Below are positions 4,131-32,377 of a stretch of DNA of 35,686 nt, in pieces. The translations under genes were made by a program, and so were the position numbers. Location of the stretch: IMG/VR virus record IMGVR_UViG_2923302340_000008. One strand, given 5' to 3'. The DNA comes from a virus (lineage: Duplodnaviria; Heunggongvirae; Uroviricota; Caudoviricetes). Under the pieces are notes generated by a model, which saw only the letters and a list, made by a program, of their open reading frames with translations, had not been told where the DNA came from and did no database searches. The first letter of the stretch is position 1. Every line of letters starts with the position of its first letter.

Positions 4131-4223
4131 TTTGTTTTAACCTCATGACAGATTTAAGGATGAACAAATCCCTGCCATTGCTGGCATATAAGAATGAAAC
4201 CGGATATTTATTACGGAACTGTT

Positions 4224-4415
4224 TTAAAGACCTGCCGGGATTTCGATATTATCCTGGTGAATAACTTTATCGACCGGGTAACAGTTACCGGGAATTTTCT
4301 GTTCGGTTGCTGCAGTCATACACTCCTGCATTGTCCTGTGAACACTGACTGCAATATCAACTGGCTCTCCGGAAACAAGAAAAACTGTCAGAACAAGCGC
4401 AAATGCTGAATTCAT
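4224..4415 (-). CDS. ydfD: YdfD-like small lysis protein with N-terminal hydrophobic segment
   Basis: 63-aa product (MNSAFALVLTVFLVSGEPVD…) immediately downstream of dicB, with its start overlapping the dicB stop. Length and position match Qin ydfD. Confidence 0.7.
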   Translation of the reverse strand: MNSAFALVLTVFLVSGEPVDIAVSVHRTMQECMTAATEQKIPGNCYPVDKVIHQDNIEIPAGL

Positions 4416-4600
4416 TGTGCACATCCTTTTGGCATCAGACGTAAACGAGCCAGCATTGAAACAATGCATATTTTATTTAATAGCTCCCGTTCTTGTTTTC
4501 TCTTGTTAATGGCATCTTCAGTAAATACAGGGTTACTGATAGTGACACCAATTTCAAAACAACCTTCAGACGTATTAACGTTTGGTAATAACGTTTTCAT
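4412..4600 (-). CDS. dicB: Cell division inhibitor DicB
   Basis: 62-aa product MKTLLPNVNTSEGCFEIGVTISNPVFTEDAINKRKQERELLNKICIVSMLARLRLMPKGCAQ matches recalled DicB nearly residue for residue. A GAGGA RBS lies 8 nt upstream. dicF lies immediately upstream. Confidence 0.85.
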   Translation of the reverse strand: MKTLLPNVNTSEGCFEIGVTISNPVFTEDAINKRKQERELLNKICIVSMLARLRLMPKGCAQ

Positions 4601-4771
4601 TATCGCGTCCTCAACAATGAATTTTGTGATGCAGTGCCTGGTGCCTCCAGGTGACGTTAACCAGTTAACAATTAACGCCGGATACAGAGAATCCACCCAT
4701 AACACTGTTTTTGGTTTTAACTGTTCCGCGTGCGCTTAGCCGCATTCACCGCATCACAAAATTCACTTTAA

Positions 4772-4827
4772 AAACGGCGGCAGAGCAGTCACGGAGTAAA
4801 ACTGATACCGCCAAACGTCACCAGAAA
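4772..4827 (-). ncRNA. dicF: DicF small regulatory RNA (ftsZ translation inhibitor)
   Basis: The reverse complement of 4776..4827 reads TTTCTGGTGACGTTTGGCGGTATCAGTTTTACTCCGTGACTGCTCTGCCGCC, matching the recalled about 53-nt DicF sequence. A GGCGG…CCGCC stem and a U-tract follow. It sits directly upstream of dicB as in Qin. Confidence 0.85.
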
Positions 4828-5102
4828 ATTGATAACAGAGGGCGTTGCAGCGGGGTTGTCACTTAAGCGTATGGTTAACCTGACAACTCGGTGTCCTCAA
4901 CGGGGAAGGAATAACCCCGCCATACTTACCGCCGCGCCATTTCGCGGGTTGCCACAACCGGAAGCGCACGGTCGAATTAAATTTAACGACACCGTACAGT
5001 GAGACGAACTTCGCCGTGCGCTTTCGTGTTGTGTGCCTGCTTTTAACCACGTCAGGCGAGGTGGTATCCTTCTTATCCCGAATAACCAAGAAGGAAATCT
5101 AT

Positions 5103-5303
5103 ATGACTAAAGAAGAATTTGTCTCTTATATTTTTGATAAAACGGTTGAAATGTATGCCGCTACTTACGGGTCCTGTAATCCTCTGAATAAACCAGAGGG
5201 GAAAGATGATTTCGACAAAATTTACCGCTTCTTGGAGGATCGCTATATCAAAAGGTTAGAGGACGCAGGGATCAAATCCCCAGTGAAGTCACCATTGTCC
5301 TGA
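5103..5303 (+). CDS. Hypothetical 66-aa protein encoded on the strand opposite to the dicB operon
   Basis: ATG preceded by a strong RBS (AAGAAGGAAAtctatATG). Codon composition is protein-like. No recognisable family. Confidence 0.4.
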   Translation: MTKEEFVSYIFDKTVEMYAATYGSCNPLNKPEGKDDFDKIYRFLEDRYIKRLEDAGIKSPVKSPLS

Positions 5304-5649
5304 GAACTTGCAGGACGTCATGATCGTAACTTCCATCCAAACCGCGACGGCAAATTGCTTCTCGTATTACCGGAAGCAGTTCGCTGGAAATCTCGGTGCA
5401 TATTTCACCTGCTAATACGCCTGGTTCAAGTGAGAATATTGGTGAACTTACGGTCTTGGTCTCGACAGTTTCAGAGTCAGTGCCAACATTATAAAGCTCA
5501 ACGAAAGCGGTCTTGATTTTCCGGGCCAGATCTTTTGCTGGCTCGCTTGCAATATCTTTCCCGATTTCTCGCAGCACAGAATGCAATGTATGAGCTGCTG
5601 TTTTCTGTACATCAGACGGTAAATCTTTAAATTCCATCGTCAGCCTCAT
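5272..5649 (-). CDS. Hypothetical 125-aa protein of the dicB operon
   Basis: Its start overlaps the ydfA-like stop (TGATG), suggesting translational coupling. Composition is protein-like. Family unknown. Confidence 0.5.
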   Translation of the reverse strand: MRLTMEFKDLPSDVQKTAAHTLHSVLREIGKDIASEPAKDLARKIKTAFVELYNVGTDSETVETKTVSSPIFSLEPGVLAGEICTEISSELLPVIREAICRRGLDGSYDHDVLQVLRTMVTSLGI

Positions 5650-5801
5650 CAGTCAGTGTTTCTGGCTAACCAGCAACGCGCGCCAGATTCGGTTTTAAAC
5701 GTTTTGCTTTTGGTATATGTCATCGCGGTGAACGTACCGTCCTGGTTGGGGAACACGCCACATACCAGAGATTCGCTGTTGCCAAGATCGATAGTATCCA
5801 T
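5649..5801 (-). CDS. ydfA: YdfA-like small protein (first gene of dicB operon)
   Basis: 50-aa product MDTIDLGNSESLVCGVFPNQDGTFTAMTYTKSKTFKTESGARCWLARNTD resembles recalled Qin YdfA. It lies downstream of the dicA-like gene. Confidence 0.6.
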   Translation of the reverse strand: MDTIDLGNSESLVCGVFPNQDGTFTAMTYTKSKTFKTESGARCWLARNTD

Positions 5802-5914
5802 GCTGACCTCATTTCCCCTTAACGCCGGGGTAGCGGAACTGTTTGCTGAGAACACCGTGCGGTGTGTTGATGGAGGTGATTTGGTTTTCTCATTGTTTTT
5901 CGTCAAGGTTTTTT

Positions 5915-5936
5915 GATGAGAAAACTCAAGTATTGG
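5915..5936. promoter_or_regulatory. Candidate DicA operator in the dicB-operon promoter region
   Basis: gaTGAGAAAACTCAAgTATTGG is a near-exact copy of the site at 6450..6470. It contains the inverted repeat TGAG-aaaa-CTCA. It lies between the dicA stop and the ydfA start. Confidence 0.5.
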
Positions 5937-5993
5937 CGCAAGATAAAGCCAATACATTGAAATGTAAGGCTTTAAAATTTTGTGAAGGGATGA

Positions 5994-6401
5994 TTATTGA
6001 TGCTTGTTGCGTTTGCGAGCCTCTAATAGCTCGGTGAACAGGCGATTAAAATTCTCAACGCGGGCGCGGAGTTCGCTGAGTTGTGCTTGTTGCTCTGATT
6101 TAGGAAGTGCGCGATACAAACGCAGCATCTCTAACTCATCTTCCGATAAGTCTAAGGCACTATCGAGTGAAACAGGGGGAGCTGGTGTTTTGTCCTCGTC
6201 GCCAAACAGTATCCAGGTTGGTGAACATTGCAATACCTCGGCGAGGCGATGCAAATTTTGCCCGCGCGGGGCTGTATGGTCACTTTCCCATAATGAAATT
6301 GATGAGCCAGATACGCCAGCAGCTTTGCTTAAACCGTTTTGACTTAAGCCTACCTGCTTACGTCTTTCTCTAATGCGTTGACCTAAAGTTTTCTCGTTCA
6401 T
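5994..6401 (-). CDS. dicA: DicA-like HTH (XRE-family) repressor
   Basis: 135-aa product from MNEKTLGQRIRERRKQVGLSQ… with an N-terminal HTH and the motif LQCSPTWILFGDEDK recalled from DicA. It is divergent from the dicC-like gene. Confidence 0.8.
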   Translation of the reverse strand: MNEKTLGQRIRERRKQVGLSQNGLSKAAGVSGSSISLWESDHTAPRGQNLHRLAEVLQCSPTWILFGDEDKTPAPPVSLDSALDLSEDELEMLRLYRALPKSEQQAQLSELRARVENFNRLFTELLEARKRNKHQ

Positions 6402-6449
6402 ATTTAGATATCTTAATAACCCTTGACTTGAGATTCCTTGAGTGATTAG

Positions 6450-6470
6450 CATTGAGAAAACTCAATATTG
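6450..6470. promoter_or_regulatory. Candidate DicA/DicC operator in the divergent intergenic region
   Basis: atTGAGAAAACTCAAtATTGG with inverted repeat TTGAG-aaaa-CTCAA. It overlaps a putative dicC promoter (TTGACT at 6423..6428) and lies just upstream of the dicC RBS. Confidence 0.5.
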
Positions 6471-6478
6471 GAGGTGCG

Positions 6479-6706
6479 ATGTTTAAATCAGACGTAATTA
6501 ATTTTTACGGTACGAAAGCCAAAGTAGCGAAAGCTGCTGGCGTTGACCCATCTGCTGTTTCTCAATGGCAAGAGCTGGTTCCTGAAGGTCGCGCGATGCG
6601 TCTACAGGAGGCATCTGGCGGCGAGCTTCTGTATGATCCCAAGGTTTATGACGAATATCGTAAGACGAAGCGGGCGGGGCGGTTGAACAATGAAAATCAC
6701 TCCTGA
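6479..6706 (+). CDS. dicC: DicC-like Cro-type regulator
   Basis: 75-aa product with C-terminus …LVPEGRAMRLQEASGGELLYDPKVYDEYRKTKRAGRLNNENHS as recalled for DicC. GGAGG RBS. Divergent from dicA. Confidence 0.75.
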   Translation: MFKSDVINFYGTKAKVAKAAGVDPSAVSQWQELVPEGRAMRLQEASGGELLYDPKVYDEYRKTKRAGRLNNENHS

Positions 6707-7211
6707 ACAGGCTCGTGAGGCTCTGGATGCTTGGATATGTCGACCAGGAATGACACAGGAGCAGGCGACGATATTAATCACTGAAGCATTCTGGGCTTTG
6801 AAAGAGCGCCCGAACATCGATGTTCAGCGTGTCACAGATGAAGGTGGCGCGGTTGATCAGCGAGCGCTTGGCGTTAATCGAGTGAAGATATTCGAACGCT
6901 GGAAGGCTATCGACACCAGGGATAAGCGTGAAAAGTTCACGGCGCTAGTGCCTGCAATTATGGAGGCTATCCGGATTAATGATTTCAGGTTGTATCGTGA
7001 AATTAGTGACGGAAAAAGCATCACGTACATGATCGCCGGGTTAAACAAAGAATATGGCGATGTGGTGGAGTCCGGACTGCTTTTTGCTGATCCTGCCGTA
7101 GTGGATCGTGAAACTGACGAACTTATAGAAAAAGCAATTGCTTTCAAACTTGCGTATCGACAGCAATACCAACAAAAAGCTGGATGGAATTATGAGCCTT
7201 CTTTTTGCTGA
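6690..7211 (+). CDS. Phage early-region protein of unknown function
   Basis: 173-aa ORF beginning inside the dicC 3' end and co-directional with it, upstream of the replication gene. No recognisable motifs. Confidence 0.5.
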   Translation: MKITPEQAREALDAWICRPGMTQEQATILITEAFWALKERPNIDVQRVTDEGGAVDQRALGVNRVKIFERWKAIDTRDKREKFTALVPAIMEAIRINDFRLYREISDGKSITYMIAGLNKEYGDVVESGLLFADPAVVDRETDELIEKAIAFKLAYRQQYQQKAGWNYEPSFC

Positions 7212-8621: not shown

Positions 8622-10178
8622 ATGAATGCCTATAAATTCAGAAATAATGATGAGATTGGAAAATTAGAGGCGGAAACTGATTCTTATCTTGATGCTTGTT
8701 TTTATGAGTCCAATGTTTTTAAAGGTATTGTGAATTTTGACTCTACTGAGAAGAATCCTGATTTTACAAGAAGAATTATTGTTGGAAGAACAGGAAGCGG
8801 TAAGTCTGCGTTGCTTAAAAAAATATTAGACAAAGGAAATATTAAGCTGCATGACACAATAGAGGCAGAAAATACGATATTTGAACATATTAATAACAAT
8901 GTGTTTATATCTGATTTGATCTCGAAAGGGATAGATTTACGTGGGTTTTATAAATCGTTATGGCTGCATGTATTACTTATGAAAGTTATACCAGCCGTTT
9001 ATCGTTCTTCCTATCAAAGCTTTTTTGAGGAAATTAAAGATCTTATTGGTGGTAAGAAGAAACCGTATAAACCAGAAGTTGCGAATGATTATATTGAACA
9101 ATTTAAAGAAAATTTCTTCAATGATAAAGCGCTCATTGAAATAAGTAACAAGCTTGAAAGTGATTTGTCATTCAAACTCGGAAATTCCGCTGTTGGTGTG
9201 GGTGGTAAAATATCTAATTCTGATACAGCCAAAATACAATCAGAAACTTCAAGTTATGTGAGTCGTGAACTTCTTTTTAAACAAAAAGAACTTATTAAAA
9301 TACTTAAAGAGGAGTTCGCTGACTCAAACCAGGTTAGAATAGTAATCAGTATCGATGATTTAGATAAATCTTGGTTAAGCACGAGCGCCATCAGATATGA
9401 CTTTATTAATGCTCTTCTTGAGGCCTTTCGAGAATTATTAGATATAAAGTCGGTTAAGGTTCTGATATCAATAAGAACAGATATTTTAATGGGAATTTAT
9501 AAAAGTAGTTTAAGGCAGGATGAGAAAGATCAATCTTTAATATATTCCATATCATGGAATAAAACGGAAATAAGAGAGATTATTGATGCTAGAATTAACC
9601 ATTTGGTTAAAAATAGATATCAATCAAATAAGTCTGTATTAATGAAGGATATTTTTAATTTTACAGTTGAAGGTATTGGAGCAGATGATTATATCCTTGA
9701 CAGAACAATGCTTAGGCCTAGAGATGCAATTAATTTCGTAAATATATGTCTTTCTGAGTGCGATGGTATGGTTAACATGAATGAAAATATTGTGTTAATT
9801 GCCGAAGAGAAATTTTATTCGTCCAGAAAGAGAGCTTTGGTTACAGAATGGAAAAGCATATATCCGTTTATCGAAGAATATTTGGATGTGCTTTCCTTGA
9901 TTTCATTTTCTGATTTTACAGTCTCAAACATAGGACAAGCAGTAAAAGATGATATATCGCAGCATTTACTTGATAGATTGACTGTAGTTAAAGAGGATGA
10001 TCAACATACAAAAATATTGATGAATTTTGAGGAGTTACTTAAAGTCTGGTTCGTCGTAGGCGTGGTTGGCATAAGGAAAACAGTATCTTTAATTTTATAT
10101 TCATCTTTTGATAAACCTAATTTGGATATTACTGATATGAAGAGAGATTTTGTAATACATCCGTTGTTTGATAGGTAA
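8622..10178 (+). CDS. AT-rich P-loop NTPase of unassigned family (candidate defence or abortive-infection protein)
   Basis: 518-aa ORF. Walker A is IIVGRTGSGKSALLKKI near residue 55. Walker B-like VRIVISIDDLDKSW lies near residue 243. Candidate sensor and arginine motifs are ISIRTD and LRPRD. Base composition is markedly AT-rich versus flanks. A TATAAT hexamer sits at 8578..8583 and a GGAG RBS upstream. Confidence 0.75.
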   Translation: MNAYKFRNNDEIGKLEAETDSYLDACFYESNVFKGIVNFDSTEKNPDFTRRIIVGRTGSGKSALLKKILDKGNIKLHDTIEAENTIFEHINNNVFISDLISKGIDLRGFYKSLWLHVLLMKVIPAVYRSSYQSFFEEIKDLIGGKKKPYKPEVANDYIEQFKENFFNDKALIEISNKLESDLSFKLGNSAVGVGGKISNSDTAKIQSETSSYVSRELLFKQKELIKILKEEFADSNQVRIVISIDDLDKSWLSTSAIRYDFINALLEAFRELLDIKSVKVLISIRTDILMGIYKSSLRQDEKDQSLIYSISWNKTEIREIIDARINHLVKNRYQSNKSVLMKDIFNFTVEGIGADDYILDRTMLRPRDAINFVNICLSECDGMVNMNENIVLIAEEKFYSSRKRALVTEWKSIYPFIEEYLDVLSLISFSDFTVSNIGQAVKDDISQHLLDRLTVVKEDDQHTKILMNFEELLKVWFVVGVVGIRKTVSLILYSSFDKPNLDITDMKRDFVIHPLFDR

Positions 10179-10408
10179 TAGCAATGTGAATATGTTGAGA
10201 CTACTGGAAAAGCTATAACTCCTTTAGTAAAGTTTCCGTGGGTGCTTGAGGCTATCTGTCTCAGGCATGAACACCAAAGGCAGATAGAGAAAAGCCCCAG
10301 TTAACATTACGCGTCCTGCAAGACGCTTAACATTAATCTGAGGCCAATTTCATGCTAGACACATGTAGGTTAGCCTCTTACGTGCCGAAAGGCAAGGAGA
10401 AGCAGGCT

Positions 10409-10564
10409 ATGAAGCAGCAAAAGGCGATGTTAATCGCCCTGATCGTCATCTGTTTAACCGTCATAGTGACGGCACTGGTAACGAGGAAAGACCTTTGCGA
10501 GGTACGAATCCGAACCGGCCAGACGGAGGTCGCTGTCTTCACAGCTTACGAACCTGAGGAGTAA
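10409..10564 (+). CDS. hokD: Hok-family type I toxin (HokD/RelF-like)
   Basis: 51-aa product MKQQKAMLIALIVICLTVIVTALVTRKDLCEVRIRTGQTEVAVFTAYEPEE matches recalled Hok-family sequence. GGAGA RBS. An in-frame upstream extension from 10352 is present. Confidence 0.85.
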   Translation: MKQQKAMLIALIVICLTVIVTALVTRKDLCEVRIRTGQTEVAVFTAYEPEE

Positions 10565-10633
10565 GAGACCCGGCGAGGGAGAAATCCCTCGCCACCTCTG
10601 ATGTGGCAGGCATCCTCAACGCACCCGCACTTA

Positions 10634-10665
10634 ACCCGCTTCGGCGGGTTTTTGTTTTTATTTTC
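10634..10665 (+). terminator. Rho-independent terminator downstream of hok
   Basis: CCCGC-TTCG-GCGGG hairpin followed by TTTTTGTTTTT. A second hairpin, GAGGGA-gaaa-TCCCTC, lies at 10575..10590. Confidence 0.7.
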
Positions 10666-10780
10666 AACGCGTTTGAAGTTCTGGACGGTGCCGGAATAGA
10701 ATCAAAAATACTTAAGTAGCGCGCAGGGAGAAGAGGGATGGTCCCTTAAAGGGGAGAGCTAATTATCCGGAAGGATTCTG

Positions 10781-11044
10781 ATGATGAACATGATGATGAA
10801 CATCGAAGAACTGCGTAAAAATTTTTGTGAAGATGGCCTCTATGCTGTGTGCGTTGAAAATGGAAATCTTGTTAGTCATTACCGCATTATGTGTTTGCGA
10901 AAGAATGGGGCTGCGTTAATTAATTTTGTGGATGGTCGAGTGACAGACGGATTTATCTTGCGCGAAGGTGAGTTTGTCACTTCATTACAGGCACTGAAAG
11001 AGATCGGAATAAAAGCAGGCTTTTCAGCTTTTGCAGAAGAATAA
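10781..11044 (+). CDS. Hypothetical protein
   Basis: 87-aa ORF with an AAGGA RBS and tandem Met codons. Family unknown. Confidence 0.45.
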   Translation: MMNMMMNIEELRKNFCEDGLYAVCVENGNLVSHYRIMCLRKNGAALINFVDGRVTDGFILREGEFVTSLQALKEIGIKAGFSAFAEE

Positions 11045-12440: not shown

Positions 12441-12457
12441 TTTTGTGGAGTAAGTTG

Positions 12458-12835
12458 ATGCGTGATATTCAGATGGTTCTTGAGCGTTGGGGGGCATGGG
12501 CGGCTAATAATCATGAAGATGTGACCTGGTCGTCCATTGCCGCCGGTTTTAAGGGATTAATTCCTTCAAAAGTAAGATCTCGTCCGCAATGCTGTGACGA
12601 TGACGCGATGATCATTTGTGAATGTATGGCTCGCCTGAAAAAAAACAACAGCGATTTACATGATTTATTGGTGGACTATTATGTCGGCGGCATGACTTTT
12701 ATGGCGCTTGCACGTAAGCATGGGCGATCTGATTGTTGGGTTGGCAGGATGCTCCAGAAAGCTGAGGGCGTAGTGGAGGGCATGCTGATGGTGTTGGATC
12801 TCCGATTGGAGATGGATGCTGATTGTTCGAAATAA
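12458..12835 (+). CDS. Putative late-gene antiterminator Q
   Basis: 125-aa ORF ([21 protein letters not shown]…) with a Cys cluster. It sits at the Q position and is followed by a promoter-like sequence and a strong terminator. Confidence 0.55.
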
Positions 12836-19433: not shown

Positions 19434-19793
19434 ATTAATATTAAATCGGATTATTTTTAGCGCTGAATGTGAAATTTAAATAAAAAGGACTCTTCCATGA
19501 GTCAAAATCCTTGAAATCTTAAGGGTAAGATAAAAGGTCATTAGACAGAATGACACGTTTTATTAATAAATAAAGCTATTGTTTCATTCGTGTGTTTTTC
19601 TTTACAAAAGTAATCCTTGCTATGGTTGGTTAATCATGCGTTAATGGTGTTCTGGTTTGTTACAAAATTATCTGAAGCAGTCATTGTTATAATTTTATTA
19701 TTTGTACCTCTTGAGATTTCCTTGTTGGTTTTTCTCTCTGATATTTTTTTTCGGACCATTCTGCCCAAGGGCTAACTTCTTCAAAAGGTAATA

Positions 19794-20009
19794 ATGATGT
19801 CTAACAAAATGACTGGTTTAGTGAAATGGTTTAACCCTGAAAAAGGTTTTGGTTTCATCACGCCGAAAGATGGTAGCAAAGATGTGTTTGTCCATTTCTC
19901 AGCTATTCAGAGCAACGATTTCAAAACGTTAACTGAGAATCAGGAAGTCGAATTTGGTATTGAGAACGGACCTAAAGGCCCCGCGGCTGTTCATGTTGTG
20001 GCACTTTGA
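19794..20009 (+). CDS. Cold-shock protein (CspB/CspI-like)
   Basis: [38 protein letters not shown]… carries RNP1/RNP2 cold-shock-domain motifs. A long AT-rich 5' leader precedes it. Confidence 0.9.
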
Positions 20010-20213
20010 GGTAGAAAATATTACAAACCATATTCACTTTAGATGCCCGTGTTGCCATGGTTCTCAGTATAGAACATCATCTTTTGATGTTTCTGACAGG
20101 AATCCTTTCGGGGCAAAATGTATCTTTTGTAAATCAATGATGATTACATTTGATAATATTTCACAATACTTAAATGTTAGCCGTCTATCGTTAGATTTAA
20201 GAAAGTGAAAATG

Positions 20214-26236: not shown

Positions 26237-28045
<1,809 letters not shown>

Positions 28046-31802: not shown

Positions 31803-32377
31803 TGGCATTCAGAATGAGTGAACAACCACGGACCATAAAAATTTATAATCTGCTGTCCGGAACTAATGAATTTATTGGTGAAGGTGATGCATATATTCCG
31901 CCTCATACAGGTCTGCCAGCAAACAGTACCGATATTGCACCGCCAGATATTCCGGCTGGTTTCGTGGCTGTTTTCAACAGTGATGAGTCATCGTGGCATC
32001 TCGTTGAAGATCATCGGGGTAAAACGGTTTATGACGTGGCTTCCGGCGACGCGTTATTTATTTCTGAACTCGGCTCATTACCGGAAAATGTCACCTGGTT
32101 ATCCCCGGAAGGGGAGTTTCAGAAGTGGAACGGCACAGCCTGGGTGAAGGATACGGAAGCAGAAAAACTGTTCCGGATCCGGGAGGCGGAAGAAACAAAA
32201 AACAGCCTGATGCAGGTAGCCAGTGAGCATATAGCGCCGCTTCAGGATGCTGTGGATCTGGAGATCGCAACGGAGGAAGAAACCTTGTTGCTGGAAGCCT
32301 GGAAAAAGTATCGGGTGTTGCTGAACCGTGTTGATACATCAACTGCACCGGATATTGAATGGCCAGCCCTACCGTAG
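31802..32377 (+). CDS. tfa: Tail fibre assembly protein Tfa
   Basis: 191-aa ORF overlapping the stf stop (TAATG). Size and position match lambda Tfa. Confidence 0.8.

Follow-up and report, generated by a model that had tools for sequence, protein, structure and literature searches.

Positions 10205–10660 of the analysed DNA very probably hold a complete type I toxin-antitoxin cassette, a hok/mok/sok locus of the hokD/hokW subtype that works as in plasmid R1 and in hokW-sokW. The analysed DNA, here called the window, is a 35,686-nt sequence of a member of the Caudoviricetes (IMG/VR record IMGVR_UViG_2923302340_000008). For the window, the assignment draws on the sequence elements of the cassette (Table 1), on their conservation and covariation and on the predicted refolding of the mRNA. 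The cassette is of the textbook type and as such already known; only its upstream neighbour, a gene for a P-loop ATPase, is unusual.

Table 1 Features of the hok/mok/sok cassette and of the upstream ATPase gene (positions in the window; minus-strand features are given 5' to 3')
Feature	Position	Strand	Description
Sll1717-family P-loop ATPase	8622–10178	+	518 aa; NCBIfam E = 2.1e-52, weak Pfam KAP_NTPase match
Putative hok promoter, -35 TGGAAA	10205–10210	+	17-nt spacer to -10
Putative hok promoter, -10 TAAAGT	10228–10233	+	putative start at G10240
Full-length mok-hok mRNA	10240–10656	+	about 417 nt
tac, GGGUGCUUGAGG	10240–10251	+	mRNA 5' end; fold and RNAalifold
ucb / anti-SD box, AAGCCCC	10292–10298	+	fold; GCCCC (10294–10298) invariant in 11 loci
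mok SD, GAGG	10340–10343	+	8 nt upstream of ATG 10352; inside the Sok-complementary stretch
mok frame	10352–10564	+	70 codons; in frame with hok, stop codon common to both
dcb, CCUC	10374–10377	+	partner of the mok SD in the truncated fold; inside the invariant GCCTCTTA block
hok SD, AAGGAG	10394–10399	+	9 nt ahead of ATG
hok (HokD)	10409–10564	+	51 aa; Pfam HOK_GEF and K-12 HokD identity
Tyr47 codon UAC followed by G (UACG)	10547–10550	+	candidate TadA A-to-I site, A10548, Tyr to Cys
3' stem-loop, GGCGAGGGA-GAAA-UCCCUCGCC	10572–10593	+	9-bp stem, GAAA loop
fbi, CCUCAACGCACCC	10614–10626	+	pairs with tac
hok intrinsic terminator	10633–10650	+	7-bp stem, UUCG loop, U-tract; T-run to about 10660
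Sok promoter, -35 TTGCCT	10395 to 10390	-	identical to the sokW promoter region
Sok promoter, -10 TAACCT	10372 to 10367	-	17-nt spacer from -35
Sok transcription start, G	10360	-	6 nt past -10
Sok antisense gene	10360 to 10284	-	about 71–77 nt; homology to annotated sokC, sokB and sokW
Sok transcript layout	hairpin 10345 to 10288	-	15-nt single-stranded 5' tail, terminator hairpin, U-tract; fold

The toxin gene and its prophage setting

The hok reading frame matches the Pfam profile HOK_GEF (PF01848) over 42 of 42 profile positions (E = 1.2e-23) and its product is 100% identical to HokD of Escherichia coli K-12 (WP_000813254.1). This agrees with the initial annotation, which had proposed an intact 51-aa Hok-family toxin with a good ribosome-binding site. 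The conserved residues C34, T36, T44, R45, L48, C49, E50, G56, E59, V60, Y66 and E67 (Mok numbering) are all present; neither a failed alignment with Hok-family proteins nor inactivating substitutions, the outcomes named beforehand as speaking against the gene, were found. An in-frame upstream extension had been suggested to be a Mok-like leader, and its ATG at 10352 is the exact alignment position of the annotated mokC and mokW starts. The 70-aa frame shows 93% identity to MokW (VT2-Sakai) and 74% to MokC of K-12, and matches PHROG 251, 'MokW-like host killing' (E = 7.7e-33).

HokD features a tyrosine in place of the second periplasmic cysteine. For HokC, HokD and HokE, a cysteine coded by RNA editing has been described at the position of Tyr47, with 6% of the K-12 hokD mRNA being edited (PMC12214031). 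Full toxicity of HokD may depend on such low-level Tyr-to-Cys editing. HokD was used as a previously characterised toxic control in the toxicity assay of a preprint (10.1101/2025.08.07.668861).

The region 10179–10720 has a copy with 100% identity in the chromosome of E. coli strain 300081, where it lies within a Qin-like lambdoid prophage whose integration site adjoins rspAB. The gene order in this strain is dicB, dicA, dicC, a ydaT-like gene, an O-like replication gene, the P-loop ATPase gene, hokD, rem, ydfU, Q and lysis genes, and Pfam and PHROG scans of the window ORFs support the same order. Within this lambdoid E. coli prophage of the Qin-like type, the hok cassette occupies the early-right, nin-like region.

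Several Rfam families were found elsewhere in the window. The DicF antisense sRNA matched at full length at 4775–4826 on the minus strand (72.5 bits), which fits a Qin-type dicB operon. Further full-length matches are the Hfq-binding sRNA isrC at 27399–27521 on the minus strand (150 bits) and the IS009 RNA family at 32145–32343 on the plus strand (221.7 bits), the latter where the prophage carries its late or tail-fibre genes. A cspA thermoregulator 5' UTR at 19639–20055 on the plus strand (109.8 bits) is presumably that of a cold-shock gene paralog, of the cspI/cspB type, carried by the prophage.

Directly past the hok terminator and upstream of a rem-like ORF, a promoter-like sequence (TTGAAG-18-TAGAAT) is located at 10673–10702 on the plus strand. 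The rem-like ORF (10781–11044, 87 aa) belongs to PHROG 340 (function unknown) and opens with an odd MMNMMMN run; the RefSeq start of rem lies 12 nt inside this longest ORF. The Q antiterminator of the window (12443–12835, plus strand) has 130 aa and matches Phage_antitermQ over the full profile. At the position of Q, Qin of K-12 carries the 250-aa ydfT, while the Q gene of strain 300081 is interrupted by an IS3-family element, indicating that Q alleles vary among otherwise similar prophages.

The Sok antisense RNA

Whether the leader encodes a Sok-like antisense RNA had been considered undecidable by eye. The question can be decided: judging by sequence comparison, a Sok antisense gene is present at this locus. 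An antisense promoter and terminator on the minus strand of the leader, for which the initial annotation had proposed to look, can both be assigned and would give an RNA of about 71–77 nt, compared to the roughly 60–70 nt anticipated. In alignments with the hokC and hokB loci of MG1655, annotated sokC and sokB project onto 10360 (5' end) to 10284 (3' end) of the minus strand. Annotated sokW (71 nt; VT2-Sakai, AP000422.1) projects onto 10360 to 10290.

Comparison with hok/sok covariance models, likewise proposed, gave a match of the Rfam sok model RF01794 to the plus strand of the leader at 10240–10414 (118 bits, E = 1.4e-26). This match is evidence of leader homology and not of the antisense gene itself. 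Its plus-strand orientation does not contradict the antisense gene, since the model represents the mRNA strand of the hok leader, beginning at +1 and ending at the start codon of hok.

The Sok promoter stretch equals the promoter region of sokW base for base. In the 'promoter-less' sokW of Takada et al. (2021; PMC8621323), the primer used for inverse PCR (YO-421) replaces exactly the -10 hexamer TAACCT. A2 and T6 of the hexamer do not vary among the 11 aligned hok loci, which comprise the window, STEC299, phage HannyBb, VT2-Sakai, PPompW, a P1-like plasmid-phage, strain QA-1986, K-12 hokC, K-12 hokB and two plasmid hok loci. A sigma-70 scan of 10050–10800 with a threshold of 9 of 12 consensus positions reported no minus-strand promoter, the Sok promoter having 7 of 12. 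Reading this result as absence of Sok was rejected, because the sokW promoter, which has the same sequence and has been verified by experiment, also reaches only 7 of 12.

The Sok segment folds (z = -4.26) into a 5' tail and a long hairpin, which are followed by GGGGCUUUU. In each of the 11 loci, folding of the Sok strand was favoured by about 10 kcal/mol over that of the mirrored sense strand, a difference to be expected under selection for G.U pairs in Sok. One U.G pair of the hairpin is invariant; the sense strand would have an A.C mismatch at this position. Among nine distinct Sok sequences, the hairpin has 14 consensus pairs with 95.2% of the cells paired, and compensatory changes were observed in eight of the 14 pairs. 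These values were not reached by any of 500 shuffles, and pairing dropped to 34–56% when the register was slid. Sok spans both the SD sequence and the start codon of mok.

Compared to the hokC, hokB and plasmid loci, the hokD/hokW subtype carries an insert of 18–21 nt in the tip of the Sok hairpin (window 10302–10334, about 10310–10326). The insert makes a GCGUC/GACGC stem of its own and extends Sok from about 57–59 nt to about 71–77 nt. PPompW is without this insert.

The nearest relative is hokW-mokW-sokW of VT2-Sakai/Sp5 (AP000422.1), with 92.9% DNA identity over 95% of the 417-nt locus. Both loci share an identical Sok promoter, in-frame mok and hok, the enlarged Sok hairpin and a lambdoid prophage as home. 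HokW is 92% identical to Hok of the window (47 of 51 residues), whereas its identity to Hok of R1 is only 44% (PMC8621323). The two loci differ in the C-terminus of Hok (TAYEPEE in the window, VDYESEK in HokW), in several bases of the Sok 5' tail and in the place of the cassette, which in Sp5 lies near the far prophage end beyond a very large ORF and in the window between replication genes and Q. HokW was reported to be toxic and SokW, expressed from its own promoter, to rescue the cells in a partly RNase III- and Hfq-dependent manner, and both RNAs were detected by Northern blot (Takada et al. 2021, PMC8621323). According to the same study, SokW is lost after mitomycin C treatment in a RecA-dependent manner and deletion of hokW-sokW lowers phage release by about half (PMC8621323).

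The mok-hok mRNA and its predicted switch

The 417-nt mok-hok mRNA has a minimum free energy (MFE) of -169.7 kcal/mol (z = -7.35 compared to shuffles). In the full-length fold, tac and fbi form a helix of 12 pairs with one bulge and the mok SD is paired with the GCCCC of ucb. RNAalifold analysis of the 11 loci kept 11 of the tac/fbi pairs, with both-sided changes at two of them; the exception is K-12 hokC, the 3' end of which cannot be aligned. When 10613–10656, comprising fbi and the terminator, was removed in silico, the MFE prediction paired tac with ucb and the mok SD with dcb. The hairpin of mok SD and dcb is also drawn in the Rfam consensus. In silico truncation at 10598, just past the 3' hairpin, did not yield a switch of the MFE structure, so that the predicted refolding depends on the end point chosen. 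The R1 mRNA was described with tac/fbi and SD/ucb pairing at full length and with tac/ucb and SD/dcb pairing after truncation (PMC9841398), and the refolding predicted for the window mRNA matches this switch.

Two hairpins behind the toxin gene had been taken as 3' folding elements of a hok mRNA. This view stands and both hairpins exist, but their coordinates were refined, from 10575–10590 to 10572–10593 and from 10634–10665 to 10633–10650 with the T-run to about 10660. The second hairpin is the terminator, which lies past fbi. The structure of the first is conserved while its sequence is not, with compensatory changes across the loci (RNAalifold columns 414–433). By analogy with the truncated R1 mRNA, whose last stem-loop guards against exonucleases (PMC9841398), this stem-loop probably forms the protective end of the processed mRNA.

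If the cassette works as proposed, a weak promoter would yield the stable mok-hok mRNA of about 417 nt, which pairing of the 5' tac with the 3' fbi would lock in a closed state with the mok ribosome-binding site held by ucb. Slow trimming of about 40 nt from the 3' end would remove terminator and fbi, upon which tac would pair with ucb and the mok ribosome-binding site, now in the dcb hairpin, would be open to ribosomes and to Sok. Translation of mok would be required for the coupled translation of hok. Sok, an unstable RNA of about 75 nt transcribed from a separate promoter on the opposite strand, would pair over the ribosome-binding site and start codon of mok, and the duplex would be cut by RNase III. 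Once the supply of Sok ends, by loss of the element or induction of the prophage, Hok would be made and would depolarise the inner membrane. It is by analogy with R1 and hokW-sokW that the cassette is presumed to be transcribed, processed and cut by RNase III, to be toxic in this strain and to have its biological role.

The hok promoter, whose activity is presumed from its sequence, is the least certain element of the cassette. With 8 of 12 sigma-70 consensus positions it falls below the scan threshold and is, like the Sok promoter, a poor match. Position 10240 is exactly where homology to most other hok loci sets in, and the 40 nt or so ahead of it are unlike those of nearly all other hok loci. 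As the end of the foreign ATPase cassette lies no more than about 40 nt ahead of the start, the hok promoter could have been weakened. Inclusion of 10200–10239 in the ATPase cassette is unsupported, since the similarity of the ATPase flank to the Citrobacter and Huaxiibacter loci stops about 25 nt past the stop codon. A further promoter candidate for hok (TTGATA-17-TATGTT, 10168–10196, plus strand) was discarded for its lack of conservation and its location in sequence of the ATPase cassette; with two such sites found and 0.8 expected, it is also within what chance would give.

The divergent upstream sequence and the modest promoter match are also what would be seen if the intact-looking cassette were effectively silent, a relic like most chromosomal hok loci, with its hok promoter altered by the ATPase cassette. 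In that case hok would hardly be transcribed, if at all, leaving nothing for Sok to control. In line with this, hokA, hokC, hokD and hokE of K-12 were reported to be inactivated (PMC12214031), and intact chromosomal hok loci tested earlier did not cause post-segregational killing (preprint 10.1101/2025.08.07.668861). On the other hand, the -10 element retains TAnnnT, of which T1, A2 and T6 are invariant in 11 of 11 aligned loci, and all downstream elements including the ORF are intact and visibly under structural constraint. The promoter of R1 hok is weak by design. In addition, the near-identical hokW locus is expressed and active (PMC8621323). We consider a silent relic unlikely and the cassette very probably a complete and working one.

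Relatives, distribution and the upstream ATPase

The initial annotation regarded relBE as the usual neighbours of the toxin gene, which is the view from K-12 only. The junction of relE and hokD found in K-12 is present in 1173 of 5426 complete E. coli genomes, compared to 4259 of 5426 for the full 155-nt hok leader (at least 80% of the 155 nt covered), which occurs at a median of two places per genome. K-12 carries hokD (relF) in the relBEF operon of Qin, a prophage of the same type as that of the window and at the same chromosomal site adjoining rspAB. The Hok proteins are identical, and so is the DNA from 10395 through the terminator into rem, ydfU and Q. However, the K-12 locus has nothing of the sequence ahead of 10395, so that tac, ucb, the mok start, the Sok gene and the hok promoter are all missing, with relE abutting the hok ribosome-binding site. 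Since the homology of K-12 hokD to the window begins only at 10395, at this ribosome-binding site, K-12 relBE-hokD represents a truncated derivative and the window the complete form. The relBEF arrangement was not found in the window, which features the ATPase gene upstream and the full leader and is without the K-12 junction sequence. The hok loci of K-12 other than hokB have been reported to lack canonical components (PMC12214031).

The hok/sok (parB) locus of R1 shares with the window, in identical order, the promoter, tac, ucb, the Sok target with the mok SD, mok, hok, the 3' stem-loop, fbi and the terminator. In both, the Sok promoter is placed opposite the hok SD, and the refolding predicted after 3' trimming is also common to them. 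The window differs by the 18–21 additional nt in the tip of the Sok hairpin and by its prophage instead of plasmid setting. In R1, mok is out of frame with hok. The same applies to mokB, the stop codon of which differs from that of hokB, whereas the frames coincide in the window, mokC and mokW. K-12 hokC (gef)/mokC/sokC resembles the window in this respect; its leader can be aligned throughout and sokC maps onto the predicted Sok. It differs in a 3' region, including fbi, that cannot be aligned, in the adjoining IS186 and in a sokC of 59 nt without the tip insertion.

The locus was found in 108 phage records, many of them of Stx phages, and an enrichment of hok in prophages has been described (preprint 10.1101/2025.08.07.668861). 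Annotation does not reflect the leader: in 40 of 40 sampled rows of RefSeq/PGAP annotation, no feature, neither mok nor sok, was present under the leader match (window 10240–10394). PGAP names 'hokD' alone at the locus, and the only records with annotated mok and sok features are the curated one of MG1655 and the older GenBank entry of VT2-Sakai. This gap in the PGAP annotation is the reason why the initial annotation could not decide on the antitoxin.

The junction of ATPase and hok seen in the window is shared by 9 of 5426 complete genomes of E. coli. In other loci, the slot upstream of hok is occupied by relBE (K-12), QueH (STEC299) or Paa/AdfO (PPompW). The ATPase gene has a G + C content of about 0.30, compared to about 0.5 in its flanks. 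PADLOC yielded no match for the ATPase or Hok, and membership of the ATPase in the anti-phage family DS41_1 of NCBIfam was rejected at 39 bits, compared to the cut-off of 370. A homolog in Citrobacter amalonaticus (86% identical; locus positions 4172–6762) directly adjoins a pair of McrC (PF10117, E = 2.1e-73) and AAA_5 McrB-like genes, which is a defence-island context without hok/sok nearby. The Huaxiibacter homolog is situated among phage-like ORFs, also without hok/sok nearby. A 2.6-kb contig labelled 'MAG: Bacillota bacterium' carries a 91%-identical copy of the enterobacterial ATPase and is probably mis-binned.

A scan of genome contigs yielded three ATPase loci, none of which (0 of 3) has a hok leader near it, and coupling of ATPase and Hok by co-travel was rejected as unlikely on this ground. 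Since its homologs occur elsewhere without a hok leader nearby, the ATPase represents independent cargo. One could go further and regard hok/sok as the fixed right border of a hypervariable cargo slot, with the ATPase or induction coupled to the release of Hok, a proposal that we judge very unlikely. If true, the transcript of the ATPase gene would enter hok and sense transcription would collide with that of Sok. The proposal would cover the early-right operon of Qin-like and lambdoid prophages, with relBE, QueH, Paa/AdfO and the Sll1717-family ATPase as cargo.

Even more improbable, to a degree that we dismiss it, is that expression of Hok depends mainly on transcripts reading through from the ATPase gene, as with K-12 hokD, which is co-transcribed with relBE, and that both proteins form one functional unit such as a sensor ATPase with a membrane-toxin effector. 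In its favour, both genes lie on the same strand, no terminator-like site was found from the stop of the ATPase gene (10178) up to the terminator of hok (10633), and the Citrobacter McrBC neighbourhood and the weak DS41_1 match place ATPase homologs in defence contexts. Against it, the complete Sok gene and the tac/fbi/ucb/dcb apparatus provide for autonomous control, the deviating G + C content marks the ATPase gene as separate cargo, and the homologs without hok/sok, the rarity of the junction beside a cassette found in more than 4000 genomes with other neighbours and the PADLOC result also speak against such a unit. The initial annotation had offered read-through from this gene as a fallback for toxin control in case Sok were absent. 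Because the Sok gene is present, no such fallback is needed; read-through into hok is physically possible and not required for control.

Taken together, the locus is best described as a complete hok/mok/sok cassette. It belongs to one of the best-studied type I toxin-antitoxin systems and carries little weight as a discovery: most E. coli genomes contain its subtype, hokD/hokW, and hokW-sokW, the relative nearest to it, is already known from experiments. The low-GC Sll1717-family ATPase is a rare, uncharacterised cargo and a candidate defence gene that may merit a study of its own. For the hokD locus of Qin, known from K-12 in its truncated state, the window displays the complete form.
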